Assembly: GCA_963781585.1 (NCBI GenBank)
Contig: CAWAGQ010000014.1
Coordinates: 32,001 to 96,000, forward strand
Direction of reading: 5' to 3'
Origin: an uncultured Gemmatimonadaceae bacterium
Lineage (GTDB): Bacteria; Gemmatimonadota; Gemmatimonadetes; Gemmatimonadales; Gemmatimonadaceae
DNA: 64,000 bases
Below the pieces are notes generated by a model. It had not been told where the DNA came from and did not search any database. It saw only the letters and a program-made list of their open reading frames with translations. This document shows, one piece after another, positions 602-64,000 of this stretch. The position numbers and the translations under genes were made by a program. Within the stretch, counting starts at the first letter, position 1. Each line of letters starts with the position of its first letter.

Positions 602-1846
602 TCAGTTGATTCTCACCTTGTTCGAATTGTCGAAGGGCGACATGTCGGAGATGATCACCTTGTCGCCCGGCTGCAGGCCCGCGACGACCTCGATCTGATT
701 CACCGACGCCTTGCCGAGCTGCACGTTCGTGCGAATGGCGGTCTTGCCGTCGGATTCCAGCTTGAACAGCCCGACTGTACTCTCCGCCTGACCGTAGGCC
801 GGCCGGCCAACGTACATCACGTTCGCGAGTCGGTCGATCTCGATGGTGCCGTCCACGGTCAGGTCGGCGCGGGCGCCAGGAGGCATGTCCCCTTCGAGCG
901 CCACGTCCACCGCCACCGTCCCGGCGTTCGACACCGGGTCGACGCGAATCACGTGACCCGGGATGATCGCCGGACGCGTGTCCACATCCACCCTCTGCCC
1001 CACCACCACGTCCTTGGCCTGCGTGTCGGGAACGTGCAGCACCGCCTTGAAGCGTCCCGGCTGCGCCACCCGCGCCAGCTCCTGACCGGGCACCACCCAT
1101 TGTCCGTCCTCGAGACTGAGCGTCTGGAGCACCCCGTCGAGACCAGCGGTCACGTGCAGCGACGCGAGGCGCTCCTGGTGGAAGGCCGCCACCGCCTTGA
1201 GCCGGTCGACGTTGGCCGCGGCCATCTTGAGCTGTTCGCCGGCGGCGGTGGTCATGCCGTCCAGCCGCCGCTGCTCGATGTCGAGCCGCGTGCTCAACTC
1301 GTCGGCGGTCTCCCGCGCGCTCTTCGCCTCGTTAGGCGACGTGAGGTGTTTGGGCAGCAGGCTGTCCTGCAGCGCTACGTTGCGCAGGGCAGCGCTGTAC
1401 TGCGTCTTCAGCGTGGCGATGGCGCCTTCCTGCGCGAGGCGGTTCGACTCGAGGTTGGTGCGGAGCGTGACCTGATCCTGTTCGGCCTGGGTCACGTTGC
1501 GCTGGGCCTCGAGCATCTGCAGTTGCTCGTCGGGATTGCTCAGTTCCAGGATGACCGTCGACTTCGTCACCTGCGATCCCGGGCGCAGCGGACGCGCCTC
1601 GACACGCCCGGCGGTTACCGCGGCGACGTAGCGCATGTTCTCCGAGACCAGGGTACCCGAGGCACGCACCTGTCTGATCAGCTCTCCCCGACGCACGGAA
1701 TCGATGATGACCTCGCCGCGAGCGACACTGGGAGGACGCGCTTCCAGTCTGCTCAACGCGACCGTGACTCCCGTGGCGGCTACGATCGCGCCCGCGATGA
1801 GGATGTTTCGCTTGGTTTTCTTGGGTGGTGCTCGCTTGACGTCCAC
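602..1846 (-). CDS. Efflux periplasmic adaptor subunit (HlyD/MacA family)
   Basis: N-terminal TM anchor, lipoyl-like halves (GRVEARPLRPGSQV; GVLQTLSLEDGQWV), long coiled coil, C-terminal GLQPGDKVI. Confidence 0.9.
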   Translation of the reverse strand: MDVKRAPPKKTKRNILIAGAIVAATGVTVALSRLEARPPSVARGEVIIDSVRRGELIRQVRASGTLVSENMRYVAAVTAGRVEARPLRPGSQVTKSTVILELSNPDEQLQMLEAQRNVTQAEQDQVTLRTNLESNRLAQEGAIATLKTQYSAALRNVALQDSLLPKHLTSPNEAKSARETADELSTRLDIEQRRLDGMTTAAGEQLKMAAANVDRLKAVAAFHQERLASLHVTAGLDGVLQTLSLEDGQWVVPGQELARVAQPGRFKAVLHVPDTQAKDVVVGQRVDVDTRPAIIPGHVIRVDPVSNAGTVAVDVALEGDMPPGARADLTVDGTIEIDRLANVMYVGRPAYGQAESTVGLFKLESDGKTAIRTNVQLGKASVNQIEVVAGLQPGDKVIISDMSPFDNSNKVRIN

Positions 1847-2065
1847 GCGGACAGACCTTTCAACCGGGGTGAGACACTCTTTCTACGGCATAGCGTTGGC
1901 ACCATGTTTCAATGAAAGGATTGTGCCCTCGCGTTGATTCGTCGCAACGCGTTGTCGCGCATTGTGTTGGGCGGCCTCATGAGATGCCTGACCGGCACAT
2001 GGCTGTGCGCCGGTGGGACTCGACGTCCCGGAACCGGACAGCGCCCTGGGGACCTCGGCTGTGAC

Positions 2066-2749
2066 CTATCGCCCTTTCCCCGCCGTGTCCACCGCGGCGA
2101 GCAGACGCCGAGCGCCCAGCCAGTGGCGCGTGTACCACGACCCGCGCTCGCCGATAATCGACTCCACCACCTGGCGTCGGGTGGTGCTGGCGTGCACGAA
2201 GTGTCCGTCACCCACGTAGATGCCAACGTGCGTCACCCCCTTCCCGGCGCCGAACGTCAGCAGATCCCCGGGGCGCAGCCGGGAGGTGTCGCGCTCGACC
2301 GCGCGCCCCACCAACGACTGGCTTCTCGCCGTGCGTGGCACGTCGAGGCGCAACAGCGACAGGACGAACCGAACGAGCCCGCTGCAATCGAAGCCGCGCG
2401 CGGGACTCTCGGCCCCCCACCGATAGTGTATTCCCAGCTGGGCGCGAACCAGCGTGACGATGGAATCCTGCAGTTCTTCCGCGTCCAGCGACTCGCCCGG
2501 CGCAGCAGCCGAGTCCGCGGCGGCAGCGGCGATCGCGACTGCCGCGCGGGAGCCCGCCACGATCGGCAGCGAACCAACAACCGAGTGGAGCCTGGCCGAA
2601 GCGGAGTCACGGAGTCGCTCAGCCGATGCGCTGAAGGCTTCGAACGGTTTTCGTCGCGCCAATCCGCTCGATGGCGAGAACTGTCCGGCGACCATCGAGG
2701 GTCCGGCCAGCATGAGCGAGGCGGCAACAACGAGGACGCGACGCAGCAA
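2066..2749 (-). CDS. NlpC/P60 (C40) cell-wall peptidase, secreted
   Basis: Signal peptide; YRWG, FDCSGL, PGDLL, HVGIY, FVHAS motifs. Confidence 0.92.
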   Translation of the reverse strand: MLRRVLVVAASLMLAGPSMVAGQFSPSSGLARRKPFEAFSASAERLRDSASARLHSVVGSLPIVAGSRAAVAIAAAAADSAAAPGESLDAEELQDSIVTLVRAQLGIHYRWGAESPARGFDCSGLVRFVLSLLRLDVPRTARSQSLVGRAVERDTSRLRPGDLLTFGAGKGVTHVGIYVGDGHFVHASTTRRQVVESIIGERGSWYTRHWLGARRLLAAVDTAGKGR

Positions 2750-2942
2750 GAAGTGTCGTTTCGCTATCGGTGGGTCGACCCCGGCGCATGCCGGACGATC
2801 GAGGCGAGCACGACTGAACTGCGCTTCAAGCTACGCGGACCCGCGTTCCGCGGTAGGGGTCGCCCCCGGGGGGCACGCCACGCTGGTGCCGATCTCGCTC
2901 CTGATTGCAACCATCACGTGCCGATATGTTGTCTCATGATAT

Positions 2943-3287: not shown

Positions 3288-6043
3288 TGACAGTGGATTG
3301 GCGCGGTCAGGTCAGAGCGGTACTCCGGGACATCACCGGCGACCCGGCTCGCGATGAGGAGATCGTCGAGGAGCTCGCCGAGTATCTGGCCGAGCGGTAC
3401 GCCGAACACGTGGCGTCGGGAGCGACCCCGACCGACGCGCTCGCGCGGACCACCGCGGAACTCCGGGAAAACGAACGCCTGTCGCCTGCCTTGCGGCGCG
3501 CCGATCGGCCCAGGTCGGTCCATCCGATTCCACCACCGCAAACGGAGGAAAAATCCGTGTTCAGGGACTTCCGGCAGGACATCGGATACGCCGCCCGCCT
3601 GTTGTGGCGCAGCAAGGGGTTCACAATCGCGGCCGTGCTCACCCTTGGGCTGGGAATCGGCGCCACCACCGCGATCGTGAGCGTGGTGGATCGCGTTCTC
3701 CTGCGTCCCACGCCACTGGCCGACCCCGGCCGGTTGATGATGGTGTGGGAAACGGACCGGAACAGCGGCACGACGCGCGAGCCGTCGTCGCTCCCCGACT
3801 ACCTGGACTTCGTGAACCGAAGCCGACAGTTCGCCAGCCTGGCGGCGTTCATGGGAGGGGAGGCTACCCTCTCGCCTAACGATGGAGATCCGATGCGGCT
3901 GGCGGGTCTGGCCGTGACGCACGGTTTCCTCTCCACGCTGGGCATCCGGCCGCTGGTCGGACGGGCGTTCTCGCCGGACGAAGACCGGCCCGGCGGGCCG
4001 GCGGTGGTGCTGATCAGCGAGGGGCTCTGGGAGCGTCTGTTTCAGCGACGCCCCGATGTGATAGGTCAGACGATCCGGATCAACGACCGCGATCAGACCG
4101 TCGTCGGGGTCATGGCGCGCGACGCGGACTTCGGCGTGATGCAGGTATTGGGTGAAGCGGCCTACAGTCGCGCGTTCGCGGACCGCGACCTGCGAAGTCG
4201 CGTGGATGTCTGGATACCGCTGGCGGGCGATCCCGCGAGCCTGCCGAGGGAGACGCATCCCATCTTCGTGATCGGCCGCCTCGCGTCCGGAGCCACACGG
4301 ACCACCGCTCAGAGTGAGATGACCGCGATCGCGGCCGATCTGGAGCGCGCGTACCCCTCGAATCGGGCACGGGGCGCCTTCATCGAGCCGGTCCCCGACG
4401 TCGTCTTCGGTCGGGTACGCCCGGCGCTCCGCGTGCTGCTCGCCGCGGTCGCTGCCGTGCTGCTCATCGCCTGTGTCAACGTGGCCAACCTGCTGCTCGC
4501 CCGCGGCACCGTGCGAGCCAGAGAAGTCGCGCTGCGAACCGCACTCGGTGCCGCCACGTCAAGACTGCTGCGGCAATTCGTCGCCGAGAGCCTGGTGCTC
4601 ACGCTCGTCGCGGTGCTGCTTGGCGTGGCGCTGGCCGCAGCGGGCCTGCGCGCACTGCTGACCCTGGCGCCAGCCGACATTCCCCGCCTGACGTCGGTGG
4701 CGATTGACCTGCGCGTCTTCGGCATCGCACTCGCGATCGCGGTCGTGACCGGACTGGTGTTCGGCCTCGTGCCCGTGTGGCAGGCACGGCGGCTCGACGT
4801 TCAGGGTGCCCTCAAGTCCGACGACGACCGCGGCGCTTCCGCGGGGCGCGGCGGCGCCGCGGTGCGTTCTTCGCTGGTGGTGGGAGAAATCGCGTTGTCG
4901 GTTGTGCTGGTGATTGCCACCGGACTGCTGATCAAGAGTTTCTGGCGGGTCGAGCACGTGGACGCCGGCTTCGATGCCCGGCAGGTTGTGAAGGCGGAGT
5001 TCCAGCTGCCACCCAGCCGCTATCCCGCGGAGATGCGTCTGTGGCCCAATTTCGTGGCGGCGCGCCAGTTCAATGACGAACTCCTGAGACGCGTGCGGTC
5101 GCTGCCGGGAGTCGAGACAGCGGCCATCGCCGGCAACCATCCGCTCGACGCCGGCTTCACGAATTCCTTCCAGCTGGTGGGACGCGAGAGCGAGGCGCGA
5201 GACTGGCCGGAGATCTCGGTGCGACGGATGACGCCCGACTACTTCAGCACGGTGCGGCTCGCCCTGCGCCGGGGGCGACTGTTTGCTGATCGCGACAACG
5301 CCGAGGCTCCCCCGGTTGCCGTCATCAACGAGGCCGCTTCACGACGGTTCTTCGCGGGGAGGGAGGCGCTGGGGCAGCAGATCCGCTTCTGGGGATTCAC
5401 GCGAGCCATCATCGGCGTGGTGGCGGACGAGCGCTTTCACGGGCTGACCACCGCGAGCCCGCCTGCCGTCTACATTCCGCTGGCCCAGGCTCCATCGATC
5501 GACGGATCCGAAGTGCTGCTGGTGCGAGGGGCCACCCCTCCGGCCTCGCTCGAAGCCGCCGTCCGCGAGTCGATCACGGCGATCGATCCTCAGCTGGCGG
5601 TGTTCGGGATGGAGGCGCTCGAGGCCACAGTCTCTGAATCCATCGGACAGCGGCGCTTTCTTGTGCTGCTGCTGGCGGTCTTCGCCGCGCTCGCGCTGGC
5701 CCTGGCTGCGATCGGGATTCATGGGGTACTCAGCTACGCCGTCGCAAACCGGCGTCGCGAGATCGGCATCCGGATGGCGTTAGGCGCATCGCCGGACCGG
5801 GTCACGCGTCTGGTGCTCGGCCAGGGCCTGCGGCTCACCATCGTGGGGGTCACGATCGGGCTGGCCGGCACCCTGGCCGTGCGGCGACTGTTCGTCGCGC
5901 TCCTGTTCGACGTCGCGGCGACCGATGTGGCGACCATCGCAATCACACTCCCGGTGCTGACCGGGGTGGCATTGCTGGCGGCCTACGTGCCGGCACGGCG
6001 CGCCGTGCGGGTTGACCCCCTGGCGTCGCTCCGGCAGGAGTGA
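3287..6043 (+). CDS. ADOP-type duplicated ABC permease (MacB-PCD/FtsX x2) with N-terminal prefix domain
   Basis: QDIGYAARLL..KGFT..AVLTLGLGIGA, LLIACVNVANLLLAR, REIGIRMALGA, terminal PARRAVRVDP; EEIVEELAEYL prefix. Confidence 0.92.
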   Translation: MTVDWRGQVRAVLRDITGDPARDEEIVEELAEYLAERYAEHVASGATPTDALARTTAELRENERLSPALRRADRPRSVHPIPPPQTEEKSVFRDFRQDIGYAARLLWRSKGFTIAAVLTLGLGIGATTAIVSVVDRVLLRPTPLADPGRLMMVWETDRNSGTTREPSSLPDYLDFVNRSRQFASLAAFMGGEATLSPNDGDPMRLAGLAVTHGFLSTLGIRPLVGRAFSPDEDRPGGPAVVLISEGLWERLFQRRPDVIGQTIRINDRDQTVVGVMARDADFGVMQVLGEAAYSRAFADRDLRSRVDVWIPLAGDPASLPRETHPIFVIGRLASGATRTTAQSEMTAIAADLERAYPSNRARGAFIEPVPDVVFGRVRPALRVLLAAVAAVLLIACVNVANLLLARGTVRAREVALRTALGAATSRLLRQFVAESLVLTLVAVLLGVALAAAGLRALLTLAPADIPRLTSVAIDLRVFGIALAIAVVTGLVFGLVPVWQARRLDVQGALKSDDDRGASAGRGGAAVRSSLVVGEIALSVVLVIATGLLIKSFWRVEHVDAGFDARQVVKAEFQLPPSRYPAEMRLWPNFVAARQFNDELLRRVRSLPGVETAAIAGNHPLDAGFTNSFQLVGRESEARDWPEISVRRMTPDYFSTVRLALRRGRLFADRDNAEAPPVAVINEAASRRFFAGREALGQQIRFWGFTRAIIGVVADERFHGLTTASPPAVYIPLAQAPSIDGSEVLLVRGATPPASLEAAVRESITAIDPQLAVFGMEALEATVSESIGQRRFLVLLLAVFAALALALAAIGIHGVLSYAVANRRREIGIRMALGASPDRVTRLVLGQGLRLTIVGVTIGLAGTLAVRRLFVALLFDVAATDVATIAITLPVLTGVALLAAYVPARRAVRVDPLASLRQE

Positions 6044-7070: not shown

Positions 7071-9835
7071 TGACCGCGAAACCGGCGATGCGCACGCGCG
7101 CGGATGGCGCGATTCGCGAACTGCGGGCATGGCTGCGCGACACCAATGGCACGGTCGTGGTCGCGGTGGTTTCGGTGCTGGCGGCGTACCTGCTGTGGCT
7201 CGTACTCACCCCCCGCGGACCGCACCGCTCGCTCATCGCCAACGTGGCAAACGTGCCGCTCGACGTGGCGGCGGGCATCTCGGCGCTGCTGACGTCGCGG
7301 GCGCGATCACTGAACGCACGGACCCGGCAGGCCTGGTTGTGGTGTGCGCTGGCCTTCTTCGCCGACGGCACGGGAAACCTGGGGTGGCTCATCCAGGAGA
7401 ACATCCGGGCCGCGGTCCCGTCGCCCTCGTGGGCGGACATCGGCTATCTGGCGTTTTACCCGCTCTGCCTGTATGCGCTGCTGCGCTTCCCGCGGTGGCG
7501 CCGTGGCTGGGAAGAGTCGCTCAAGTTCTGGCTTGACGTGGGGATCGTGATGGTGGCGGGCGGCACGGTGATCTGGTACGTGCTGGTCGCACCCGCCCTC
7601 GAGTCGCCGTCGGCCGGGCTGCTGGACACCATCCTGTCTCTCGCCTATCCGTTAGGCGATCTGGTGCTGGTATTCGGGTGCGCGGTGGTGTTGATGCGGA
7701 GATCGCCGCCCGAGAGCAGGCTCCCGATCATGCTGCTGGGCGCTGGCGGACTGGCGTTGCTTCTTGCCGACCTCCTCTATGGGTGGGCGGAGATGCGGGG
7801 CAACGGCTACCACAGCGGAACGTGGATCGACATCTGGTTCCAGCTGTCAGGCTTCCTCTGGTTCGTCTCCGCGCAATACCAGCGCTGGCGCGCGCGGCGC
7901 CCGGCGCTGGCGACAGCCGGAAGTCAGGAAGCATCACCGGACGTCAGTCCGCTTCCCTACGTCGCCATCCCGACGGGGTATGCGGTCCTGTTGCTGGTGG
8001 CGCTGCCGCACTGGTCACGCACTCTGGCGGGGGTGGTGCTCGCTGTCCTGGCGCTCACCGCGCTGGTGGTGATGCGTCAATTCACCGCGGTACACGAGAA
8101 TCAGCGGCTGCTGGCCGAGCGCGCGGCACGGGAAGCGAGATTCCGTTCACTGGTGCAGAACTCGTCGGACGTGATCATCGTCATCGACGGCGCGGGCGTC
8201 ATCCAGTTCTGCAGCCCCGCGGTCACACGGGTGTTCGGCTGGGATTCCGACGCGCTCACCGGCAAGAAGGTGTTCGACGTGAGCCACGCCGACGACGAGA
8301 CGCTGCTGCGCAACTTCCTGGCGCAGGTGAGCGCCCACGAAGGTGCGACGGCCTCGGCGGTCTGGCGACTGCGTCATGCGGCCGGCGACTGGCGGTACGT
8401 CGAGACCGTCGCCACCTGTCTGCTCGAGGATCCCGCGGTGGGCGGCATCGTCATGAATACCAGAGACGTGTCCGAGCGCACCGCACTGGAGCAGGAGCTG
8501 ACGCACCAGGCGTATCACGACGCACTGACGGGTCTCGTGAACCGGGTGCGCTTCCGCTCTCAGGTGGAGCGCGCCCTGCAGCAGGCCGGAGCGGTTCAGG
8601 CGAGCGTGGCGGTACTGTTCCTCGACCTCGACAACTTCAAGACCGTGAACGACAGCCTCGGACACGCCGAAGGAGACCGGCTGCTCCGCGAAGTCGCGAC
8701 CCGGCTCCTCAGTGCCACGCGCGGATCCGACATCGTGGCGCGGCTGGGCGGCGATGAGTTCGCGCTGCTGCTGGAGAAAGTGACGTCCGATGAGCAGGCC
8801 GTGGTCGTGGCCGAGCGCATCATCTCCGGCCTGCGGCGTCCGTTCACGCTCGACGCCGCGGAGGTGAACGTCGGTGCCAGCATCGGGATCGCCCGCGGTC
8901 GAGAGGGGCAGGGGACAACCGAACTGCTGCGCAATGCCGACGTGGCGATGTACGTCGCGAAGCGCCATCGCACCGGGCGCTACATGATCTTCGAGCCCGA
9001 GATGCACTCGGAGATTCGCGACCGGATGGCCCTCGAGGCGGATCTGCGCCACGCGGTCGAGCGGGCGGAGTTCACGGTGGAGTACCAGCCAATTGTGAAC
9101 CTGGGCACGGGCGAGATCGCGGGAGCCGAAGCGCTGGTGCGCTGGCAGCATCCGACGCGGGGAGCAATCTCGCCGGCCGAATTCATCCCGATCGCGGAGG
9201 ACAGCGGACTGATCATCCCACTGGGCCGCATCGTCCTGACGATGGCGTGCCGCGATGCGGCACGCTGGGTGGCGAGCGATTCGCGGCCGTTCAGCCTCAC
9301 GGTGAACATCTCCGGCAAGCAGTTGCAGTCGTCGCTGGCCGACGATCTGGCGCTCGCGCTCGACGACTCCGGCCTGCCAGCGGCGTCGCTGCTCCTCGAG
9401 ATCACCGAGAGCGTGGTCATGCGGAACACCGAGAGCATGCTGGCCAAGCTGCACGCGTTGAAGGGCCTTGGCGTGCAGCTGGCGATCGACGACTTCGGGA
9501 CGGGATACTCGTCGCTGGCGTATCTGCAACGCTTCCCGATCGACGTGCTCAAGATCGACAAGACGTTCGTGGACCACATGGGGAGCGACGACAGCGGCGG
9601 GTCGCTGTCGCGCACGGTCGTGGCGCTGGGGAACGCGCTGGGGCTGCGCACGGTGGCCGAAGGGGTCGAGCGGGTGGAGCAGGTGGCCGCGCTGCGCGCG
9701 ATCGGGTGCGACTACGCGCAAGGGTATTACTTCTCGGTTCCGGTGCGCGCGGCCGAGATGGACGCGCTGCTGACGGCGAACCGCAGTCGGAGTCCCGCCG
9801 CGCGGAAGCTGGCGATGTCGGCCGAGGCCGCCTGA
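7070..9835 (+). CDS. Membrane-bound PAS-GGDEF-EAL diguanylate cyclase/phosphodiesterase
   Basis: About 9 TM segments, PAS (FRSLVQNSSD), HDALTGL, RxxD I-site (RGSD) plus GGDEF, EAL (AEALVRW), DDFGTGYSS. Confidence 0.95.
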   Translation: MTAKPAMRTRADGAIRELRAWLRDTNGTVVVAVVSVLAAYLLWLVLTPRGPHRSLIANVANVPLDVAAGISALLTSRARSLNARTRQAWLWCALAFFADGTGNLGWLIQENIRAAVPSPSWADIGYLAFYPLCLYALLRFPRWRRGWEESLKFWLDVGIVMVAGGTVIWYVLVAPALESPSAGLLDTILSLAYPLGDLVLVFGCAVVLMRRSPPESRLPIMLLGAGGLALLLADLLYGWAEMRGNGYHSGTWIDIWFQLSGFLWFVSAQYQRWRARRPALATAGSQEASPDVSPLPYVAIPTGYAVLLLVALPHWSRTLAGVVLAVLALTALVVMRQFTAVHENQRLLAERAAREARFRSLVQNSSDVIIVIDGAGVIQFCSPAVTRVFGWDSDALTGKKVFDVSHADDETLLRNFLAQVSAHEGATASAVWRLRHAAGDWRYVETVATCLLEDPAVGGIVMNTRDVSERTALEQELTHQAYHDALTGLVNRVRFRSQVERALQQAGAVQASVAVLFLDLDNFKTVNDSLGHAEGDRLLREVATRLLSATRGSDIVARLGGDEFALLLEKVTSDEQAVVVAERIISGLRRPFTLDAAEVNVGASIGIARGREGQGTTELLRNADVAMYVAKRHRTGRYMIFEPEMHSEIRDRMALEADLRHAVERAEFTVEYQPIVNLGTGEIAGAEALVRWQHPTRGAISPAEFIPIAEDSGLIIPLGRIVLTMACRDAARWVASDSRPFSLTVNISGKQLQSSLADDLALALDDSGLPAASLLLEITESVVMRNTESMLAKLHALKGLGVQLAIDDFGTGYSSLAYLQRFPIDVLKIDKTFVDHMGSDDSGGSLSRTVVALGNALGLRTVAEGVERVEQVAALRAIGCDYAQGYYFSVPVRAAEMDALLTANRSRSPAARKLAMSAEAA

Positions 9836-9845
9836 CGCGTACCGC

Positions 9846-10490
9846 CTAACGGGATTCCGCGCGGCAGGCCACGAGCACGCCGTCCCGGATCGGCACGATC
9901 GACGAGATCCAGCGCGGGCGGTTCGTCACCAGCGCCGTGAAGTCCCGCACCCCCCGGGTCGCTGCTGACGTGTCGGCGTCATCGAAGACGCGACCGCTCC
10001 ACAGCAGATTATCGACCAGCAGGAGACCGCCGGTGCGCAGCTTCTGCTCGATCACCGGGAGCGACGCGGGGTAGCCCTCCTTGTTGATGTCATTGAAGAT
10101 CACGTCGAAGCTTCCTGACGACGCGCCCAGCGCGGCCACCGCCTCGCTCACCTGGAAAGTGACCTGATCGGCGAGGCCGAGGCGGCCCAGGTAGTCGCGT
10201 GCCTTGGCCGAGAGGGTCTCGTCCCAGACCACATGGTGGACCTTTCCTCCACCATTCTCCTTCACCGCCCGGGCGAACCAGGCCGTGGAGTAGCCGAAGC
10301 CCGATCCCATCTCGAACACCTGGCGGGCGCCCGTCATCCGCGTGAGCAGATAGCACAGGTGACCAGAGGCGGGTCCGATGATCGGAAAATCCGTGGCCGC
10401 CGCCTCGGCCTCCATTTCGGCGAGCACGGCATGGCGAGGCGGAACAAGGCGGTCGAGGTACGACGCGACCTGAGGGGCGATGAGGTCCAT
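9846..10490 (-). CDS. SAM-dependent O-methyltransferase (Methyltransf_3 / caffeoyl-CoA OMT-like)
   Basis: Start reset to MDLIAPQV; VFEMGSGFGYST, FDVIFND, GGLLLVDNLLWSG. Confidence 0.9.
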   Translation of the reverse strand: MDLIAPQVASYLDRLVPPRHAVLAEMEAEAAATDFPIIGPASGHLCYLLTRMTGARQVFEMGSGFGYSTAWFARAVKENGGGKVHHVVWDETLSAKARDYLGRLGLADQVTFQVSEAVAALGASSGSFDVIFNDINKEGYPASLPVIEQKLRTGGLLLVDNLLWSGRVFDDADTSAATRGVRDFTALVTNRPRWISSIVPIRDGVLVACRAESR

Positions 10491-10760: not shown

Positions 10761-12008
10761 GTGCGTCTGCCCGCCCGATGCATTGTCGCCGCACTCGCGT
10801 TTGCCGTGGAGCCATTGCATGCCCAGGCCGCGCGCGACAGCGCCGGCATCCAGATCGTCGAGAACAGCCAGCCGGCGCTCTCCGGCGCCCGTGCCTGGCG
10901 CCTGTCGCCGAAGCCGTTCCTGGAAATCGGATCCCGAGCCTCGGACGTCGGTGCTGCGCAGGATTCGCTCTACGGGCTGCTCCGCGTGAACGGCATCGCG
11001 CGGCTCAGCGACGGGCGCGTGGCGGTGGCGAACGACGGCTCGCTGACGATCCGGTTCTTCGACCAGGCGGGGAAGTTCGTCTCGTATGCTGGCCGCGAGG
11101 GACAGGGGCCCGGCGAATTCCAGCAGCTCCTGCGGATGACCCAGCGGGCGGGCGACACGCTTGTCATCACCGATCTGGGCGAGGTGGAGTACTTCTCGGG
11201 GGACGGCAAGTTCGTGCGTCGGGGCGTGCATCGCGGCGCCGAGCAGCCGCAATTCCACTTTCCACAGGCCTGGTTTCGCGACGGCTCGTTCCTGGCGGCC
11301 GACTACGCACCCACCGCGCCGCCCCCGGACGGACGCACCCTGATACGCGTCCCCCTGCTCAGGGTGTCGGCGGATGGCGCGCGGGTGGACACGTTAGGCA
11401 CATTCCCGCTGTGGGAGCAGATCTTCGATGGACGGACGCCGTACGGGAAGGGAATTGTCTTCAGTCCCACCGGGCAGCTGGCGTGCGACGGGGAGCGGGT
11501 GTACGTCGGGCTCCCGGATCGCTACCAGATCAGCGTCTACAGCGGCCTGGGCCGGTTGGAGCGCATTGTCCGGCGGTCCTGGCAACCGATCGTGGTCCGC
11601 GATGAGGACAAGGCGGCCTATCGGAAGCACACGCTCGACGGGAGCGGCGAGAACGGACGGCCATGGCCGCCGGAGGTCCGCGCCCGGCTTGAGAAATCGC
11701 TCGAATCCACTGTGTATGCCGACCGGTTTCCCGCGTTCTCGACCATGACGGCCGACCGTGCCGGGAACCTCTGGGTCCGGCAGTACGACTACCGCGCCGA
11801 GTTCCGGACCGCTGGTCGCGTACGCATGGAAACGCCGGTGGTCGCGACCCACTGGGATGTCTTCGATGGACAAGGGGGCTGGCTGACCACCCTCACAGTG
11901 CCAGCGCGATTCGCGCCGCTCGAGATCGGGGATGACTACATGGCCGGCCTTTCGCGGGATGACGACGATGTGGAGCACGTCCAGCTCTATCGTCTCATGA
12001 AGCCCTAG
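10761..12008 (+). CDS. Secreted beta-propeller-like protein (RDSAGI-type)
   Basis: Start reset to GTG 10761; signal peptide then RDSAGIQIVEN; GREGQGPGEF NHL-like motif; C-terminal RDDDDVEHVQLY. Confidence 0.7.
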   Translation: MRLPARCIVAALAFAVEPLHAQAARDSAGIQIVENSQPALSGARAWRLSPKPFLEIGSRASDVGAAQDSLYGLLRVNGIARLSDGRVAVANDGSLTIRFFDQAGKFVSYAGREGQGPGEFQQLLRMTQRAGDTLVITDLGEVEYFSGDGKFVRRGVHRGAEQPQFHFPQAWFRDGSFLAADYAPTAPPPDGRTLIRVPLLRVSADGARVDTLGTFPLWEQIFDGRTPYGKGIVFSPTGQLACDGERVYVGLPDRYQISVYSGLGRLERIVRRSWQPIVVRDEDKAAYRKHTLDGSGENGRPWPPEVRARLEKSLESTVYADRFPAFSTMTADRAGNLWVRQYDYRAEFRTAGRVRMETPVVATHWDVFDGQGGWLTTLTVPARFAPLEIGDDYMAGLSRDDDDVEHVQLYRLMKP

Positions 12009-47283: not shown

Positions 47284-47409
47284 GGATGAGGGTCAATCGT
47301 TAGGCAGTCCCGGTCGACCGTGGCCGCCGGCCGTCGCGCGCTCGCCTTGGTTGGACGATCGAGCGATTGGTGTGGAACATGTATCCGAGCCGGCGGGAGG
47401 CCGGCCGAC

Positions 47410-50214: not shown

Positions 50215-50371
50215 CGCCCGGTGCTGGATCCGGGCGCCGGCGCGGCGGAGTTCGACAGTCCCTCGGAGCAGGGAGCCGGGCGGCTCTCCCGCGAGCGCCG
50301 GCCCGCGGCCCGCAATCCCCCCCGCATCGGCCGACTCCGCCCGTTAGGCTGGCCCGGGCGGTCGAGACAAC

Positions 50372-51754
50372 CTAGTCCCCGTTCAGTCCATCTACGAGTC
50401 CCAGCACGACATCGTTCACATTGGTGCCCGTTAATCCCGTGCGCAGCAGCCCGCCCACCGCATCGAGCGATGCGTACGATGCGTGGGCGCCAAGATCGGA
50501 CGCGGGGTCCCGCCCGCGGCCCGCGATTCGCGACCAGGTGGTCGCATCGACCACCGCGCCCGCCGCGTCGGTGGGACCATCGCGACCGTCCGTCCCGGCC
50601 GCCAGCACGGTGATCCCTCGCGCCGCCGATCCTGCCCGGTGCAGCGCAGCCGCGCAGGCGAGCGCCAATTCCTGGCACCGCCCCCCCGGCGCGGCGGGGG
50701 ATGGGCCAAGACGCACGGTCGTCTCGCCTCCCCAGATTGCAAGCACTCGCGGCCGCGCGCCTAACGACTGACCTCGCGCGCGCTCCCGCGCTCGAACCAG
50801 CTCGCCGGCCACCATCGCGCCGGCGGCGGCGGCATCACCGCGCAGCGCGGCGGGTTCGACCCGCACCGCGGTGATGGCCGCCGCCGCCGCCGCCCGTTCG
50901 GCGCCGCGGAGCGCGTCACCGTTGTCCAGAATTACCGACACCGTCGTCCGGGCGAACATTGCGTCGCCCGGCTTCGGGGTCTCCGCCTCCGTCCCCGCGG
51001 CCACACGACGCAAATAGGCGCGCACACTGGAGGGCAGTGCCGGTTCGAGCTGGCGCTCGGCCAACAGAGTGAGCAGCCCGTCCGCCGTCAGGCGATCCGG
51101 CGTGCATGGGCCGGAGCCGATATGCGCCGGGTCGTTCCCCGGAACGTCGGACACGATCAGGCAGTGTGTCCGGTCCCCGCTGAGCGCGGCGGCGAGTCGC
51201 CCCGCTCCCCACCGCAGGACGCGTTTGCGAACCGCGTTCATGGTCGTGATGTCCACGCCCGAGGCGAGCAGCAGGGTGAACAGCTTCTGCAGGTCCGCGA
51301 ACGTCACCGCGTCCACCGGGCCGGCAATCAGACTGGTCGTGCCGCCCGATAGCAGCACCAGGACATCGGCACCCTTCGGGATCCCCGCCACCACTTCTCC
51401 CAGCCGGATCGCGGCCTGCCGCGACCCCTCGCCCGGGACCGGGTGCTCTCCCGTCAGCGATTCGAGCGCGGGAATCGCGGTCGATGGATGATCGGGAGCG
51501 ACGATTGCGCCGCCGGCCAGCGAAAGATCGCGAGCGCGTAGTGCTTGAGCCGCGCCGGCGCACATTGCATGGGCCGCCTTTCCGACAGCGACCACCCACA
51601 CCGGGCCACCAACCGGGCCGAGGGCGGCGACTGCCTGCCGTGTCGCGTGCTCCGCGTCGGCCGCCCGGACCGCTGCCGCGAAGAGGCTCTCGAGAAGGAC
51701 GCGCGCGGACGAAGGGACCGTTGACTGACTCCCCACGCCGTCACGCCCCGGCAT
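50372..51754 (-). CDS. Glycerate 2-kinase (DUF4147/MOFRL family)
   Basis: GKAA, HPVP, LSGG, SDVPG, GGETTV, GGRCQE, GTDGRDG, TGTNVND. Confidence 0.93.
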   Translation of the reverse strand: MPGRDGVGSQSTVPSSARVLLESLFAAAVRAADAEHATRQAVAALGPVGGPVWVVAVGKAAHAMCAGAAQALRARDLSLAGGAIVAPDHPSTAIPALESLTGEHPVPGEGSRQAAIRLGEVVAGIPKGADVLVLLSGGTTSLIAGPVDAVTFADLQKLFTLLLASGVDITTMNAVRKRVLRWGAGRLAAALSGDRTHCLIVSDVPGNDPAHIGSGPCTPDRLTADGLLTLLAERQLEPALPSSVRAYLRRVAAGTEAETPKPGDAMFARTTVSVILDNGDALRGAERAAAAAAITAVRVEPAALRGDAAAAGAMVAGELVRARERARGQSLGARPRVLAIWGGETTVRLGPSPAAPGGRCQELALACAAALHRAGSAARGITVLAAGTDGRDGPTDAAGAVVDATTWSRIAGRGRDPASDLGAHASYASLDAVGGLLRTGLTGTNVNDVVLGLVDGLNGD

Positions 51755-53167: not shown

Positions 53168-55959
53168 GCGGGTCGCGCCAATTGCCTCAGGACGTACTGC
53201 AGGATGCCGCCGTGGCGCAGGTAGTGCATTTCCTCGGGCGTGTCCACCCGCGCCTGCACCGTTAACGTGATGCTCGTGCCGTCAGCGCTCCCCGCGGTCA
53301 CAGCGAGTCGGGCCCGCGGCTTCAGCTGGTCGGACAGACCTTCGATCTCATAGGTCTCGAATCCCGAGAGACCGAGCGAATGCCGGGTCTGCCCGTCGGT
53401 AAACTCGAGCGGAAGCACCCCCATGCCGATGAGGTTGGATCGGTGAATGCGCTCGAACGACTCCGCGATCACTGCCCGTACGCCGAGGAGTGCCGTCCCC
53501 TTGGCGGCCCAGTCGCGCGACGATCCCGTTCCATACTCCTTGCCCGCGATGATCAGCAGCGGGACGCCCTGCCGCTGATATTCCATCGCCGCGTCGTAGA
53601 CGGGCACCGGATCGCCTCCCGGTGCCGTGGCCGTCCACCATCCCTCCTTCCCCGGGGCGAGCTCGTTCCGCAGCCGGATGTTCGCGAACGTGCCTCGCAT
53701 CATCACCTCGTGATTCCCGCGCCGCGATCCGTAGGAGTTGAAGTCCTTCCTCTGCACGCCCTGCGACAGCAGCCACTGACCGGCCGGACTTCGCTCGGCG
53801 ATCGACCCCGCCGGCGAGATGTGATCGGTGGTGATGGAGTCGCCGTACATGCCCAGCACCCGCGCCCCGGTCACGGCCCGAATGGGTGAGGGCTCGCGGG
53901 TCATGTTGTCGAAGAACGGCGGATGTTTCACGTAGGTCGACGAGTCGTCCCACGCATAGCGGTCGCCGGACGGCACCGGCAACGACTGCCACTGCTCGTC
54001 GCCGGCGAACACGTTGGCGTACTCGGCGCCGAACATCTCACTCTTCACCGAGCGCAGGATCTCCTCCTGCACCGCACTGGGTGACGGCCAGATGTCGCGC
54101 AGGAATACCGGACCCTGGGAGCCGATGCCTAACGGCTCGCGTTCCAGGTCGATGTCCATGCGGCCGGCCAGGGCATACGCCACCACCAGCGGCGGCGAGG
54201 CCAGGTAGTTGAATCGGGTCTGCGGGTTGATGCGACCCTCGAAGTTCCGATTCCCGGAGAGCACCGCGGCCACGATCAGCTTGCCGTCGTCGACCGCGTG
54301 GGCCACGGTCTCGGGCAGGGGACCGGAATTGCCGATACAGGTGGTGCAGCCGTATCCCACCACCGCGAAGCCGAGCTGCTCCAGGTCGGACAGGACGCCC
54401 GACTTGCGGAAGTAATCGGTGACCACCTTCGACCCGGGCGCTAGTGACGTCTTGACCCAGGGTTTCGACTGCAGCCCCTTCCGGACGGCGTTGCGCGCGA
54501 GCAATCCGGCCGCGAGCATGACCGACGGGTTTGACGTGTTCGTGCAACTGGTAATGGCGGCGATGACAACCGACCCGTGGCGGAGGGTATACGGCATCTC
54601 CGACTCCTCCGTCAGGACGGTGGCGTTCTCCTGGGCGGCGCCCTCCGCGTCCATCTTCTTCGCGTCGGCGGTGGTCGGACTGTCGTTGCTCGCCGTAGCG
54701 GCGGCGGGACTCGATGCCGGGACCGCGCCGGCCAGTCGTCGCAGCTCGGCGCCCAGCGCCTCTTCGAACATCCTCTTCGATTGTCGGAGCGGGATCCGGT
54801 CCTGGGGCCGCTTGGGTCCGGCCAGACTCGGTTCCACGCTTGCCAGATCGAGCTCGACGATGTCCGTGAAGACCGGGTCAGGCGTGTCGTCGGTGCGGAA
54901 GATCCCCTGCTCCCGGCAGTAGGCCTCCACGAGCTGCACCTGCTCCTCGCTCCGTCCCGTGAGGCGCAGGTAGCGGAGAGTCTCCACGTCCACGGGAAAG
55001 AACCCCATCGTGGCGCCGAACTCCGGAGACATGTTTCCGATCGTCGCGCGGTCGGCCACTGACAGGGTGGAAAGCGCGGAGCCGAAGAACTCAACGAACT
55101 TCCCAACGACTTTTTTCTTCCGCAGGATTTCGGTGACCGTCAGCACCAGGTCGGTGGCCGTGGCGCCCGCCGGCAACTTCCCGCGGAGCTTGAATCCCAC
55201 CACTTCGGGCACCAGCATCGAGACCGGCTGGCCCAGCATTGCCGCCTCCGCCTCGATACCGCCAACCCCCCACCCCATCACGCCCAGGCCGTTGATCATC
55301 GTGGTGTGAGAATCGGTCCCAACCAGCGAGTCGGGGTAGGCGAGTGTCTCCTTGCCGTCGCCGTTGACGGGTCTGGTGAAGACCACCCGTCCGAGGTACT
55401 CGAGGTTGACCTGATGGCAGATGCCCGTCCCGGGAGGGACCACCCGGAAGTTCCGGAAGGCATTCTGGCCCCATCGCAGAAACTCGTAGCGCTCGCGATT
55501 GCGCTCCACCTCGAGCGCCGTGTTGATGAGGAGCGATGCTTCCGATCCGTATTGATCCACCTGGACGGAGTGGTCGATGACCAGGTCCACCGGTTGGAGA
55601 GGGTTGATTTGCGTCGCGTCACCGCCCAGCTGGACGATGGCGTCGCGCATGGCAGCGAGGTCCACGACGCAGGGGACGCCGGTGAAATCCTGGAGGAGTA
55701 CGCGGCTCGTTCGGAACGCGATCTCCTTTTCTGTCCGGCCTTTGACATCCCACCGGGCCAGCGCTTCGATATCCGACGCCTTTACCGAGGCACCATCTTC
55801 ACCGCGAAGGAGGTTCTCGAGGAGGATCCTGAGAGAGAATGGCAACCGGTCCGCGTTGCCACCGGAGACACTTTGCAGAGCAGCGAGCCGGAAGATCGTG
55901 TAGCGCCGATCGCCCACTGCAAGCGTCGAGCGCGCGTTGAACGAATCTGGGTGGGACAT
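53164..55959 (-). CDS. acnA: Aconitate hydratase A
   Basis: [66 protein letters not shown]; start reset to MSHPDSF. Confidence 0.97.
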
Positions 55960-56447: not shown

Positions 56448-57512
56448 CTACGCCGCGGTGACCGCGGTCAACGCTCCCGTTGGGCAGTGGCGTACGAAGT
56501 CACCGTCGGCCGGAGACCACTCAGCCACCCGAGAGCGCGGAACCGCTTTGCCGGCCTTGTCGAGCGCCATCGTGCGCGGGGCGTTCGCCACGCACAGTCC
56601 ACAGCCGTTGCACCGCGCGCGATCGACGCGGATCTGAACGCGCCGGCGCGGGAAGATCCGCCCGCGTGCCCCGATGCAGGTCTCGAGGTCCCGCAGCGCC
56701 TCGGTCGCGGCCACGTAACCGGACTCGATGAACTCGGTCGCGGCGCCGAACCGGAACCAGGCGTGCTGGGCTACCTTGGGACGAATGAGGATCATCGGCG
56801 GACCCTCCCAGCGTGCCAGAGGGATGCCCTGAAGGGCGTGCATCATGACCATCGCGGCGCGCATGGAGATGGACGCGAACCCGCTGGCCGCCACCGTCGT
56901 GTCGGGTGGCAGTTCACCGTTGCCTACGTCAACAGCCACAATGAGGTCCGATTCCCGAGCCACCAGGCCCACCGGGAGGTTGTCCACCGTGCCGCCGTCG
57001 ATGCAGAACCGGCCGTCGACGCGACCGGGCGGGAAGAATCCAGGAAGCGCACAGGACGCGTAGACCGCGTCGTCGACGAACACGTCGCGAAGACCCGGAA
57101 GTCCCCACACCACCTGGGTGCCTAACTGCACGTCCACGGTGTTGACGTACAGCGGCATGGGAATCTCGTCGAACCGCACGTGGGGGACGATGGAGTGAAC
57201 CAGCGCACGCAACGGCTCTTCCAGATAGATTGACGGCGAGTGCATCCGCTCCAGCAGCATCCCCACGTGATTGATCCGAAGGAGATCGCGCCGGCGGAGT
57301 CGTCGGGCGCGCTCGGCGAGGTCCGACACGCTGGCACCGGTGGCGGTCGCGGCGCCCAGCATTGCTCCGACGCTGCTGCCGGCGAGAATCGCCGGCCGGA
57401 TCCCGCGCTCCTCGAGCGCCCGCAGCACCCCGATGTGCGCAAACCCCTTCAGGCCACCCCCGCCCAGGACGAGAGCGATACGAGCAGGCGTTCGGTGTTT
57501 CGCGTTAGGCAT
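56448..57512 (-). CDS. Patatin-like phospholipase with C-terminal ferredoxin domain
   Basis: GGGGLKG, GSSVG, DGG; C-terminal CNGCGLC...CPTGAL; start reset to MPNAKH. Confidence 0.9.
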   Translation of the reverse strand: MPNAKHRTPARIALVLGGGGLKGFAHIGVLRALEERGIRPAILAGSSVGAMLGAATATGASVSDLAERARRLRRRDLLRINHVGMLLERMHSPSIYLEEPLRALVHSIVPHVRFDEIPMPLYVNTVDVQLGTQVVWGLPGLRDVFVDDAVYASCALPGFFPPGRVDGRFCIDGGTVDNLPVGLVARESDLIVAVDVGNGELPPDTTVAASGFASISMRAAMVMMHALQGIPLARWEGPPMILIRPKVAQHAWFRFGAATEFIESGYVAATEALRDLETCIGARGRIFPRRRVQIRVDRARCNGCGLCVANAPRTMALDKAGKAVPRSRVAEWSPADGDFVRHCPTGALTAVTAA

Positions 57513-57879: not shown

Positions 57880-59076
57880 GTGACTGCGCGCGATCCACTG
57901 CTCGCGTTCCGCGCCGAGTTCCCGATCCTCGCCCGGACGAACTATCTCGTCTCGAATTCGCTTGGGGCGATGCCCCGCGCAGTTCCAGAGCGGCTGGCGG
58001 AGTACGTCGACGCGTGGGCGGAGCTCGGCGTGCGGGCGTGGGCAAGCGGGTGGTGGGAAATGCCCGTGACGGTGGGCGACGCGATTGCTCCGCTCATTGG
58101 CGCGTCGCCCGGCGAGGTGGTCATGGTGCCGAACGTGACGTTGGCCCAGGCCACGGTACTCTCCTCGCTCTCGTATGCCGCGCCGCGCTCGAGAATCGTC
58201 ATGTCGTCGCTGGATTTCCCATCGGTGCGTTACGTCTACGACCATCTGGCCCGGCGGCTCGGCGCCGAGATCGTGGTGGTGAACTCGGACGATGGAATCG
58301 CGATCGACGAGGACCGCCTGCTTGCGGCAGTGGACGAGCGCACGGCGCTGGTGGCCATCTCCAGCGTGCTGTTTCGGTCGGCCTACATCATGGATGTGGA
58401 TCGGATCTGCCGGCACGCGCACTCGGTCGGCGCGCTGGTGTCGCTCGATGCGTTTCACGCGGTGGGGGTCATGCCGGTGGACGTCCGGCGGACCAGTGTC
58501 GACTTCCTGTCAGGCGGCGTGCTGAAGTGGCTGTGCGGCGGTCCCGGCGGATGCTTCCTCTATGCGTCCCCGGAAATGACCGCGCGCACCGCGCCGGCAC
58601 TCACCGGTTGGCAGGCCCACGCGCGTCCGTTCGCGTTCGAGCCCGAGATGGCGTACGCCGAGAGCGCCTTTCGCTGGTTAGGCGGTACACCCGTCATCCC
58701 GGCGCTGTACGCCGCGATCGAGGGACCGCGCATCGTGCGGCAGGCTGGGATCGCTGCCATTCGAGAGAAAAGCACGCGCCAGACCAGCCGCCTGATCACG
58801 CTGGCGGATGAGCGGGGGTACGTGGTGAGGGCGCCTCGGGACGCCGCGCGTCGGGGGGGAACAGTCGCTCTCGACGTCCCGCATGGGTACGAGGTGGCCC
58901 GGTACCTGCTCGCCCGTGACATCCTGGTGGACTTCAGGCCCGGTGCCGGCATTCGCCTGGCGCCGCATTTCTACACCCGGGACGACGAGCTGGATGGCGC
59001 CGTGGCTGCGATCGACGAGGCCCTGGCCACGGGTGACTGGAAGCAGTACTGCGCGACCTCGTCGGTCGTCACCTGA
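57880..59076 (+). CDS. Kynureninase-like PLP enzyme (aminotransferase class V)
   Basis: FRAEFP, NSLGAMP, DFPS, DAFHAVG, LKWLCGGPG, RGG, IRLAPHFY. Confidence 0.85.
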   Translation: MTARDPLLAFRAEFPILARTNYLVSNSLGAMPRAVPERLAEYVDAWAELGVRAWASGWWEMPVTVGDAIAPLIGASPGEVVMVPNVTLAQATVLSSLSYAAPRSRIVMSSLDFPSVRYVYDHLARRLGAEIVVVNSDDGIAIDEDRLLAAVDERTALVAISSVLFRSAYIMDVDRICRHAHSVGALVSLDAFHAVGVMPVDVRRTSVDFLSGGVLKWLCGGPGGCFLYASPEMTARTAPALTGWQAHARPFAFEPEMAYAESAFRWLGGTPVIPALYAAIEGPRIVRQAGIAAIREKSTRQTSRLITLADERGYVVRAPRDAARRGGTVALDVPHGYEVARYLLARDILVDFRPGAGIRLAPHFYTRDDELDGAVAAIDEALATGDWKQYCATSSVVT

Positions 59077-62737: not shown

Positions 62738-62807
62738 GTCCGGGTCGGGAAGCAGACCCGGTCGTTTCCGCCCGTGGCATCTCCGCCTGCCGACACCGCA
62801 AGGTCAC

Positions 62808-64000
62808 GTGTTCGAGCCAGAGTCCGTTCTTCGCCATACGCTTCCCAACGGCTTGACCGTTCTCGTACGTGCGGACCGGTCCGCGCCGGTTGGCGCGATC
62901 GTGACTTACGTCAAGACGGGGTACTTCGATGAGCCGGACGAGGTCGCAGGCATCTCGCACGTGCTGGAGCACATGTTCTTCAAGGGCACACCGACGCGCG
63001 GGGTGGGTGAGATCGCGCGCGAGACGAAGGCGGTCGGCGGGTACCTGAACGCGCACACGATCTACGATCACACGTCGTATTTCGCGGTGCTGCCACGGGA
63101 GGGATTCCAGCGCGGTCTCGAGATCCAGGCGGACGCGTATGCACACGCCCTTCTCGATGGCGACGAGTTGGCCAGGGAACTCGAAGTCATCATCCAGGAA
63201 GCCAGGCGCAAGCTGGATTCACCGGGCGCGGTTGCGATGGAGACCCTGTTCGAGGTACTCCACGACCGCCATCGCATTCGACGCTGGCGGATCGGGCACG
63301 AAGGGTCGCTGCGCGCGCTCACCCGCGACCGGGTCCAGGCGTTCTACCGCAACTTCTACCGTCCCGGCAACACGATTCTCGCGGTGGTCGGCGACGTGGA
63401 CGTGGACGTGACGTTGCGCGAGATCGAGGTCCTGTACGGCCCGCTGGCCGACGGGGCGGTAGCGCGGGAGCCCGGATTGCAGGAGTCGAGTGCGCCGGGA
63501 TTTCGTTATCGGGAGCTCTCGGGCGACATCACGCAGACACACCTGGTGTTCGGGTGGCGGACGCCGGGGGCGCTGCACCGCGACACGCCGCTGCTGGATC
63601 TGTTCGCGGTGGTGCTCGGCACCGGGCGCGGATCGCGATTGTACCGTGCGGTGCGCGAGCGACAGCTCGCGTCCGCCGTTGCGGCTGAGAACTACACGCC
63701 CGCCGAGATTGGCGTCTTCACGATGCGCGCGGAGGGACCCCCGCCTCATGGACGGGCCGCGGCGGCGGCTATGTGGCGGGAGCTGGAGCAGGCCAGGGAC
63801 CGCGGCATCGACCCGCGCGAGGTCGCGCGGGCGCAGCGTCTGGTCGAGTCGCGCTGGCTACGGCGTCTGGAGTCGATGGAGGGGCAGGCGACATTTCTTG
63901 CGGAGTGGGAGGCGTTAGGCGACTGGCGGCTGTCGCAGCGGTACTACGACGCCACGCTGTCGGCCGGTGCCGGGGAGGTGGCCGATGCCGCGCGTCGCTT
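62808..64000 (+). CDS. M16 (pitrilysin) family zinc peptidase, 3' end outside window
   Basis: Not in ORF track. Manual translation from GTG 62808: MFEPESVLRHTLPNGLTV...GISHVLEHMFFKGT (HxxEH)...GGYLNAHT. Confidence 0.93.
   Translation, partial: MFEPESVLRHTLPNGLTVLVRADRSAPVGAIVTYVKTGYFDEPDEVAGISHVLEHMFFKGTPTRGVGEIARETKAVGGYLNAHTIYDHTSYFAVLPREGFQRGLEIQADAYAHALLDGDELARELEVIIQEARRKLDSPGAVAMETLFEVLHDRHRIRRWRIGHEGSLRALTRDRVQAFYRNFYRPGNTILAVVGDVDVDVTLREIEVLYGPLADGAVAREPGLQESSAPGFRYRELSGDITQTHLVFGWRTPGALHRDTPLLDLFAVVLGTGRGSRLYRAVRERQLASAVAAENYTPAEIGVFTMRAEGPPPHGRAAAAAMWRELEQARDRGIDPREVARAQRLVESRWLRRLESMEGQATFLAEWEALGDWRLSQRYYDATLSAGAGEVADAARR

Follow-up and report, generated by a model that had tools for sequence, protein, structure and literature searches.

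A genome-wide octamer of some Gemmatimonadales, its identity with an integron R' core and its possible role as an uptake-type self tag

The word and its copies at the locus

The window, by which we mean the whole 64-kb stretch that was analysed (G000:C14:32001-96000), comes from an uncultured Gemmatimonadaceae bacterium and carries on both of its strands one recurrent short word, the octamer CGTTAGGC. The source genome, G000, is a 5.72-Mb assembly of 17 contigs with 67% G+C and 93.5% completeness, in which a simple caller of our own found 3663 genes covering 79% of the genome; because the caller is simple, what is termed uncalled DNA below also takes in missed genes. The genes of the window are ordinary chromosomal ones (MacB/FtsX, GGDEF-EAL, TonB receptor, aconitase, QueC, MCP), the best relatives of its aconitase (71-78% identity) all belong to Gemmatimonadaceae, and a scan of the window against Rfam gave no matches. 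A sequence-only reading of this DNA had listed the copies by eye, and its coordinates proved exact throughout, with 19 octamers and 21 copies of the heptamer GTTAGGC. The copies are given here with their frame and, for most of them, the state of the site in the congener G001, of which 332 kb align to G000 at 88.3% identity.

1330..1337, + strand: CGTTAGGC, antisense frame G-CCT-AAC-G (Pro-Asn) in HlyD-family gene 602-1846(-); same octamer in G001
3874..3881, - strand: CGTTAGGC, antisense G-CCT-AAC-G in MacB/FtsX permease gene 3287-6043(+); G001 has CGCCAGGC, site private to G000
5778..5785, + strand: CGTTAGGC, sense NCG-TTA-GGC (Leu-Gly) in gene 3287-6043(+); same in G001
7650..7657, + strand: CGTTAGGC, sense NCG-TTA-GGC in PAS-GGDEF-EAL gene 7070-9835(+); same in G001
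9844..9851, - strand: CGTTAGGC, outside gene calls, would give the TAG stop of an open reading frame (ORF) at 9846-11258(-); G001 has CGTCGGGC
11392..11399, + strand: CGTTAGGC, sense NCG-TTA-GGC in gene 10626-12008(+); same in G001
14553..14560, - strand: CGTTAGGC, antisense G-CCT-AAC-G in BNR/sortilin-like gene 12085-15696(+); same in G001
31432..31439, - strand: CGTTAGGC, outside gene calls, would give the TAG stop of ORF 31434-32684(-); same in G001
32579..32586, + strand: CGTTAGGC, antisense GC-CTA-ACG (Leu-Thr) in gene 31451-32764(-); G001 has CGTCAGGC
33408..33415, - strand: CGTTAGGC, sense NCG-TTA-GGC in AAA ATPase gene 32835-34820(-); same in G001
37004..37011, - strand: CGTTAGGC, sense NCG-TTA-GGC in ABC permease gene 36716-37561(-); same in G001
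41605..41612, + strand: CGTTAGGC, outside gene calls; same in G001
44492..44499, - strand: CGTTAGGC, sense NCG-TTA-GGC in periplasmic binding protein gene 44357-45574(-); G001 has CGTTGGGC (TTG Leu codon)
47298..47305, + strand: CGTTAGGC, outside gene calls, adjoining gene 45586-47283(-); G001 has CGGCAGCT
50342..50349, + strand: CGTTAGGC, outside gene calls; same in G001
50759..50766, - strand: CGTTAGGC, sense NCG-TTA-GGC in DUF4147/MOFRL gene 50372-51754(-); same in G001
54127..54134, - strand: CGTTAGGC, sense CCG-TTA-GGC (Pro-Leu-Gly) in aconitase gene 53164-56082(-); word at the same codons in G009, G402 and G241, CCGCTGGGA in word-poor G294
57503..57510, + strand: CGTTAGGC, antisense G-CCT-AAC-G in patatin-like gene 56448-57614(-); same in G001
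63913..63920, + strand: CGTTAGGC, sense NCG-TTA-GGC in peptidase M16 gene starting at 62508(+); same in G001
57120..57126, - strand: heptamer only, AGTTAGGC
58677..58683, + strand: heptamer only, GGTTAGGC

Nine of the octamers are read as NCG-TTA-GGC, four as G-CCT-AAC-G and one as GC-CTA-ACG, and five lie outside gene calls, so the first impression that the word is written in otherwise rare codons (TTA-GGC, CCT-AAC and, once, CTA) was right. Fourteen of the 19 sites are identical in G001.

Excess, reading frames and variants

How strong is the excess, and could codon usage produce it? In the window, 19 octamers (10 +, 9 -) stand against 1.04 expected (standard deviation (sd) 0.90, largest 3) and 21 heptamers against 2.05 in 100 dinucleotide-preserving shuffles. 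The genome as a whole holds 1442 copies (724 +, 718 -) where an order-2 Markov model expects 44.3, an excess of about 32-fold which makes CGTTAGGC the most over-represented 8-mer of G000 under that model. Enrichment thus extends to the rest of the genome at a similar density on every contig (0.19-0.34 per kb on each of the 17), and the 5' C is present in 1442 of the 1591 genome heptamers. It also survives a codon-preserving null, made by synonymous shuffling within genes (10 shuffles genome-wide, 100 for the window genes): called genes hold 1063 copies against 50.5 (sd 7.7), and the genes of the window 15 against 0.77 (largest 3 of 100 shuffles). Neither of the two outcomes that the sequence-only reading had named as refuting it holds. 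Under a maximal-order Markov model the top 8-mer is a different one, GCCTGACG/CGTCAGGC, one letter off CGTTAGGC (1519 vs 1197); its excess may reflect the context of GCC-TGA stops.

By class, the copies of the genome are distributed as follows.

NCG-TTA-GGC: 696
G-CCT-AAC-G: 257
GC-CTA-ACG: 64
C-GTT-AGG-C: 40
straddling a gene end: 83
outside gene calls: 302

Called genes hold 0.234 copies per kb and the rest of the genome 0.251, a similar density. The share of TTA codons lying inside the word, which the sequence-only reading had proposed to count, is 697 of 1352. Where a peptide offers a place for the word, it is occupied in 697 of 4501 instances of [SPTA]LG (15.5%) and in 258 of 807 of xPN[VADEG] (32%); the costly frames, which need two rare codons or CTA, are sparsely occupied (xVR[LPHQR] 42/3099, 1.4%; [SCRG]LT 66/2277, 2.9%). 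The word also supplies 62 of 1140 TAG and 33 of 266 TAA stops. The apparent sense bias arises because the frames differ in the places they offer and in their cost, not because of transcription. Tripeptides that the word can encode are themselves in mild excess: [SPTA]LG reaches 1.13 of expectation in G000, where the reversed control gives 0.95 and word-poor relatives give 0.97, and PN[VADEG] reaches 1.36, where they give 1.26 and 0.85. The word is found in both orientations, in four frames, in stop codons and in uncalled DNA, and its excess outlives the codon-preserving null; this supports a force at the level of DNA, selection or drive, over a protein or codon effect, as the sequence-only reading had argued from the use of several frames.

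Around the 1442 copies no further consensus appears in the flanks, apart from codon periodicity and R at +9. Which departures from the word are tolerated? The only one-letter variants enriched in G000 are TGTTAGGC (5.2x), CGTTAGGT (7.8x), CGTTATGC (4.8x) and CGTCAGGC (2.7x). A sample of the richest genome, G009, is again marked by the two pyrimidine variants, with counts of 56 and 88 beside 347 perfect copies, and the synonymous variant CATTAGGC occurs 3 times. Neutral decay fails to account for this spectrum, from which it seems that the reader of the word accepts Y at both ends (YGTTAGGY).

Orientation, spacing and native DNA

Chi sites and the polar segregation motifs (FtsK orienting polar sequences, KOPS; architecture imparting sequences, AIMS) are octamers found at roughly one per few kb and strongly polar with replication. 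Is the word a site of this kind, guiding recombination-repair or chromosome segregation? Its length of 8 nt and its density of one per 4 kb do resemble E. coli Chi, but it is not polar with replication: relative to GC skew, the split between the G-rich and the C-rich strand is 678 to 636, with 141:137 in uncalled DNA (17 contigs, weak skew), so the strand balance that had earlier been judged unlike Chi or KOPS from the window extends to the genome. Word orientation follows gene orientation (rho 0.47), not GC skew. The 32-fold excess is far above that of known Chi sites. The RecC family was not found in G000 (93.5% complete), where two weak PDDEXK_1 matches lie in frames of 557 and 576 aa. A Chi or KOPS role is extremely improbable.

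The gaps between copies have an overall coefficient of variation (CV) of 1.00, yet close neighbours are depleted:

gaps <300 bp: 29 observed, 105 simulated
gaps <600 bp: 91 observed, 201-203±12 simulated (lowest 165 of 300)
gaps of 1-3 kb: 545 observed, 444±17 simulated

G009, sampled over 311 kb in which the word stands at 1.11 copies per kb, has a CV of 0.85 and 59 gaps below 300 bp, against 97.6. Terminator-like pairing of the word was not seen in G000, in which close pairs, inverted ones included, are depleted. One inverted pair encloses a tRNA-like sequence, judged as such by eye (G000:C4:657711-657852); G001 has the same layout, one end there reading CGTTAGGT. The window itself contains 16.9 kb free of the word (14561-31431), with a normal G+C of 68.4% and genes for a TonB receptor, an HD-GYP response regulator, a hybrid kinase and an Omp85-like protein. 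This stretch is within chance, as the genome has 30 gaps longer than 15 kb against 30.3 expected.

The word is a feature of native-looking DNA. With low G+C used as a stand-in for foreign origin, the 5% of genes lowest in GC hold 0.033 copies per kb and the top quartile 0.395, and density rises with codon typicality from 0.143 to 0.339 per kb.

Distribution among relatives and gain of sites

Two panels were surveyed, the 41 nearest genomes and a 401-genome sample of the phylum; the unpublished genomes G008, G086, G125 and G204 enter the tallies solely as word-poor rows. Twelve of the 41 nearest genomes exceed the reversed-word control, with counts from 177 to 6360 (G009, at about one copy per 0.8 kb), and the remaining ones hold 6-200 copies. 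In the phylum sample 18 of 401 exceed the control, including G000 and the borderline G079; all 18 fall within two families of Gemmatimonadales, and none of the 135 genomes from other orders or classes is among them. A third family of the order has rich members among the nearest genomes (G036, G038 and G040). Enrichment is therefore patchy and confined to one order, Gemmatimonadales. It is not restricted to uncultured organisms: in the cultured Gemmatirosa kalamazoonensis KBS708, the first 50 kb of plasmid 1 contain 30 copies, where 0.88 are expected. In samples of word-poor relatives, the top over-represented words were candidates for a counterpart and were discarded, the one in G035 being a 7-bp microsatellite and the one in G021 a Tyr-Asn codon word; G000 shows no enrichment of AAGCGACG. 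The G035 element (L114:10776-10920, on G035:C4) consists of two facing 7-bp microsatellites, (TTACCTC)n and (TTACTTC)n.

Are the sites old or recently gained? Of the sites in the G000/G001 alignment, 76 are shared, 23 belong to G000 alone and 5 to G001 alone (binomial p = 0.0009); all 8-mers together are 45% conserved. Conservation at orthologous sites, another check suggested by the sequence-only reading, favours the word about twofold over peptide-matched controls, NCG-TTA-GGC being identical in G001 in 37 of 48 cases and other [SPTA]LG 8-mers in 81 of 209 (Fisher p = 2e-6). At the private sites of G000, G001 has ordinary Leu codons, e.g. CGCTGGGC, CGCTCGGC and CGTTGGGC. Private sites differ between the two genomes by C/T, T/C, G/A and C/A changes, often two together; gains or losses thus involve several kinds of base change. 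The aconitase gene extends the picture across genera, with 1 site in G000, 5 in G009, 3 in G298, 2 in G402, 4 in G241 and 0 in the word-poor G294, whose protein is 77% identical to those of its genus mates. The sites lie mostly at different codons in the different word-rich genomes, only one column (Pro-Leu-Gly-Ile) being common to three genera (G000, G009, G402 and G241), and several accompany an amino-acid change, e.g. PAGA to PLGA. Sites have been gained independently in several lineages.

These changes bear on a further explanation, in which a methyltransferase targets the word and mismatch-specific (very-short-patch) repair turns near-matches into matches, a scheme like that of HIP1 (highly iterated palindrome 1, GCGATCGC) in cyanobacteria. 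HIP1 is likewise a hyper-abundant genic octamer, patchy among relatives; it is a palindrome linked to cognate methyltransferases, and its function is unsettled. G000 does have one ORF fusing a helix-turn-helix (HTH) region, a 5-methylcytosine (m5C) DNA methylase and a Vsr mismatch endonuclease (L093:6949-8673, G000:C7:476949-478673), and the commonest near-matches of the word are C-to-T variants at both of its ends. However, CGTTAGGC is asymmetric, and the methylase/Vsr gene does not track it: of 40 other genomes, 4 yielded relatives of the ORF, each of them word-poor (G002, G007, G019 and G034), and the 11 other word-rich ones yielded none. As a driver this gene, the only m5C methylase/Vsr gene of G000, was accordingly rejected (the survey covered m5C methylases). 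T:G-specific repair cannot yield the varied, often double, changes at private sites, and repair acting site by site would not make copies avoid each other. We regard a mechanism of this kind as very improbable. In G007 and G019 the methylase and Vsr matches are in separate open frames.

The integron link

In word-poor genomes of the sister family the few copies of the word form same-strand runs, about 550 bp apart. In the arrays of G027, G025 and G380 the copies end imperfect hairpins of 90-103 nt, which begin with GCCTAAC(A), finish with (C)GTTAGGC, contain bulged bases and separate short cassettes of lower G+C; an IntI fragment adjoins one array (G027:C80). What are these hairpins? The integron consensus, as set out in the portions of PMC3053210 and PMC12901181 drawn on here, is RYYYAAC for R'' and GTTRRRY for R', with crossover between nucleotides one and two of R'. 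The ends of the hairpins fit it, and the hairpins are integron attC sites. CGTTAGGC contains GTTAGGC, fitting GTTRRRY, and the complement GCCTAAC fits RYYYAAC; moreover, the word equals the R' core that ends the attC sites of the order in 8 of 8 letters, including the 5' C, which lies outside the 7-nt consensus. In double-stranded form it matches exactly the R box that a folded attC makes by pairing R'' with R'. The attC sites of G000 itself end in the same 8-mer, in two cassette arrays, one of them beside intI. Judged by sequence, then, the genome-wide word is letter for letter the integron R' box of the lineage, a point that is new here and was not part of the sequence-only reading.

Are the scattered copies themselves integron sites? 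In the core (GTTRRRY/RYYYAAC) and in the order's own attC end they are like attC R'/R'', attI R and attG. They differ in lying in frame in housekeeping genes, with no palindrome or L boxes: attC-like flanks were found at about 5 of the 1442 copies, and more than 99% are without a hairpin partner, L box or cassette. As insertion points they were rejected, since none of 22 indels of at least 200 bp between G000 and G001 is bounded by the word. The scattered copies are not att sites.

A tyrosine recombinase of the integron type (IntI or a relative) might still read them inside the cell, as secondary sites, decoys or raw material for new cassettes. The attC hairpins of G027, G025, G380 and of G000's own arrays end in the word, the word fits the published R' core with even the extra 5' C shared, and the tolerated variant CGTTAGGT agrees with the Y of the consensus. 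On the other hand, the purine swaps that the consensus would allow (CGTTAAGC, CGTTAGAC and CGTTGGGC) are not enriched, independent decoys or targets would not show mutual avoidance at short range, and sites within housekeeping genes bring no evident benefit on such a reading; the 0/22 indels and the ~5/1442 attC-like copies speak against it too. IntI presence showed no tie to word richness in the genomes compared. Matches above the family cut-off occur in 26 of the 41 nearest genomes, 8 of 12 word-rich ones against 18 of 29 other relatives (Fisher p = 1; metagenome-assembled genomes are incomplete), and IntI was dropped as a correlate for lack of association. In G009, with its 6360 copies, the integron integrase is found only in three adjacent pieces in different frames (L155 region, G009:C182:835-1781), representing either a dead gene or an assembly error. 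An integron-type recombinase as the reader of the scattered copies thus seems unlikely.

Could the word have been chosen because it is the integron crossover site, the rich Gemmatimonadales tagging their whole genome with the R' box and using one reader for both? This would take one of two forms. A DNA-import step tuned to the cassette tag may gather cassette arrays and kin DNA alike, or an IntI-family recombinase may pair attC with scattered cores and excise new gene-plus-attC units, a route to cassette birth. Integrons occur widely in the order, and the part of a 2025 paper considered here (PMC12614218) links natural transformation to cassette shuffling. We hold this reading to be quite unlikely. 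The identity with the integron core joins two fields, uptake specificity and cassette recombination, and offers a concrete handle on how cassettes move or arise.

A possible uptake-type self tag

What force would write the same word into native DNA thousands of times? Our preferred reading is that CGTTAGGC is a self tag resembling a DNA uptake sequence (DUS) and kept by biased DNA transfer, to which we give a probability of roughly 0.4 (0.42). Under this reading, a directional force at the DNA level would write CGTTAGGC, tolerated as YGTTAGGY, into the native DNA of some Gemmatimonadales. At some stage the import of DNA, or the recombination of what has come in, would favour word-bearing fragments, and mutations that create the word would be transmitted more often, a molecular drive continuing until the codon or protein cost offsets the gain. 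The force levels off at about one copy to each DNA segment and leaves foreign DNA untouched. Of known processes, only molecular drive through biased uptake, as with the DUS of Neisseriaceae and the uptake signal sequence (USS) of Pasteurellaceae, has this signature, and by analogy we infer that biased uptake or transfer would be the force here as well. Because the word equals the R' core, the reader may be tied to integron biology, sequence identity being the evidence for that tie.

The analogy with DUS and USS covers many properties. In the portions of PMC2817400 and PMC1939737 drawn on here, these tags are described as showing tripeptide enrichment, a codon-set frame bias, even spacing, no orientation bias and enriched mismatched forms, and as absent from genes without homologues. 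The present word is like them a short non-palindromic one, at 0.25-1.25 per kb, on both strands and with no replication polarity; it uses the cheapest coding frames, the tripeptides it can encode are enriched, and it is missing from foreign-looking genes; its spacing is over-even, some of its one-letter variants are enriched, and it is common to related genera. It differs in belonging to another phylum, in being patchy over three families without dialects having been found, in not being paired as terminators, in using the genome's rarest codons and in being identical to an integron core. The sequence-only reading had offered four mechanisms, an uptake sequence, a HIP1-like repeat, a methylation target and a nucleoid-protein site. 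The first of these fits every property computed; the HIP1-like and methylation proposals are disfavoured by the lack of a palindrome, the methylase/Vsr mismatch and the varied base changes. A nucleoid-protein site is still a candidate.

Several points weigh against an uptake-type tag. DUS has dialects, and 100-kb samples from four word-poor relatives yielded no dialect word in any of the four. The density of the word is flat (0.25-0.33 per kb) over all classes of G000-G001 identity, and we therefore saw no trace of recent word-guided exchange between these two genomes. Components of import machinery, which count for an uptake tag, are in place, with ComEC in 40 of the 41 relatives and prepilin domains in 41 of 41; being equally present in word-poor relatives, they say nothing on the patchy spread. 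The uptake model does not predict exact identity with the integron core. We know of no demonstration of uptake bias, competence, natural transformation or a reader protein in this phylum. Lastly, in the portions of PMC2817400 and PMC1939737 used here, tripeptide enrichment is about twofold in Haemophilus and Neisseria, and it is weaker in G000 (1.13 and 1.36).

The other explanation to be set beside an uptake tag is that the word serves a different intracellular reader, such as a chromosome organiser or a defence system sparing word-bearing DNA, and is kept by ordinary selection. Conservation, over-even spacing, absence from foreign-looking genes and lack of polarity fit a spaced binding array or a self mark. 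Selection at each site would, however, have to exceed the costs in rare codons and amino acids at thousands of sites, the patchiness among close genera is odd for a core chromosome function, and no candidate reader is known. We consider it unlikely.

To our knowledge, sequence-specific uptake tags are known from only two proteobacterial families. If the uptake reading is right, the word would be a third case, in an unrelated soil phylum, implying that self tags evolve repeatedly, and it would point to natural transformation in Gemmatimonadota. The literature searched, supplements aside, contained no publication on this genome word, nor any on Gemmatimonadetes with 'DNA uptake sequence'. The question can be put directly to the test, since a cultured strain, G. 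kalamazoonensis KBS708, has the word. In these genomes the word also distinguishes native from foreign DNA sharply, and it may be useful as a binning check.

The cassette arrays of the source genome

The G000 integron has its intI at C7:185885-186829 and its array on L094:1-20000 and L095:1-8900 (G000:C7:158001-186900). The second array is integrase-less and lies on L148:7000-18000 (G000:C13:307000-318000). Cassette contents include BrnT/BrnA, PIN and HTH antitoxin-like genes, GNAT and a beta-lactamase-fold protein. A Pfam scan of 55 ORFs in the arrays, made in search of a reader of the word, gave nothing but toxin-antitoxin modules, GNAT, hydrolases, kinases, an IS21 pair and an IS91-type block. 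This last is a block of 2572 bp with a tyrosine recombinase and an IS91-type Y2 transposase, present in three identical copies in G000 (L094:14353-16475, L095:4952-7074 and L148:7783-9905, reverse strand). Of the block, 2515 bp are 100% identical in G001 (G001:C13:6229-8743), though the two genomes are 88% alike; it starts with GCCTAACG and ends with CGTTAG.

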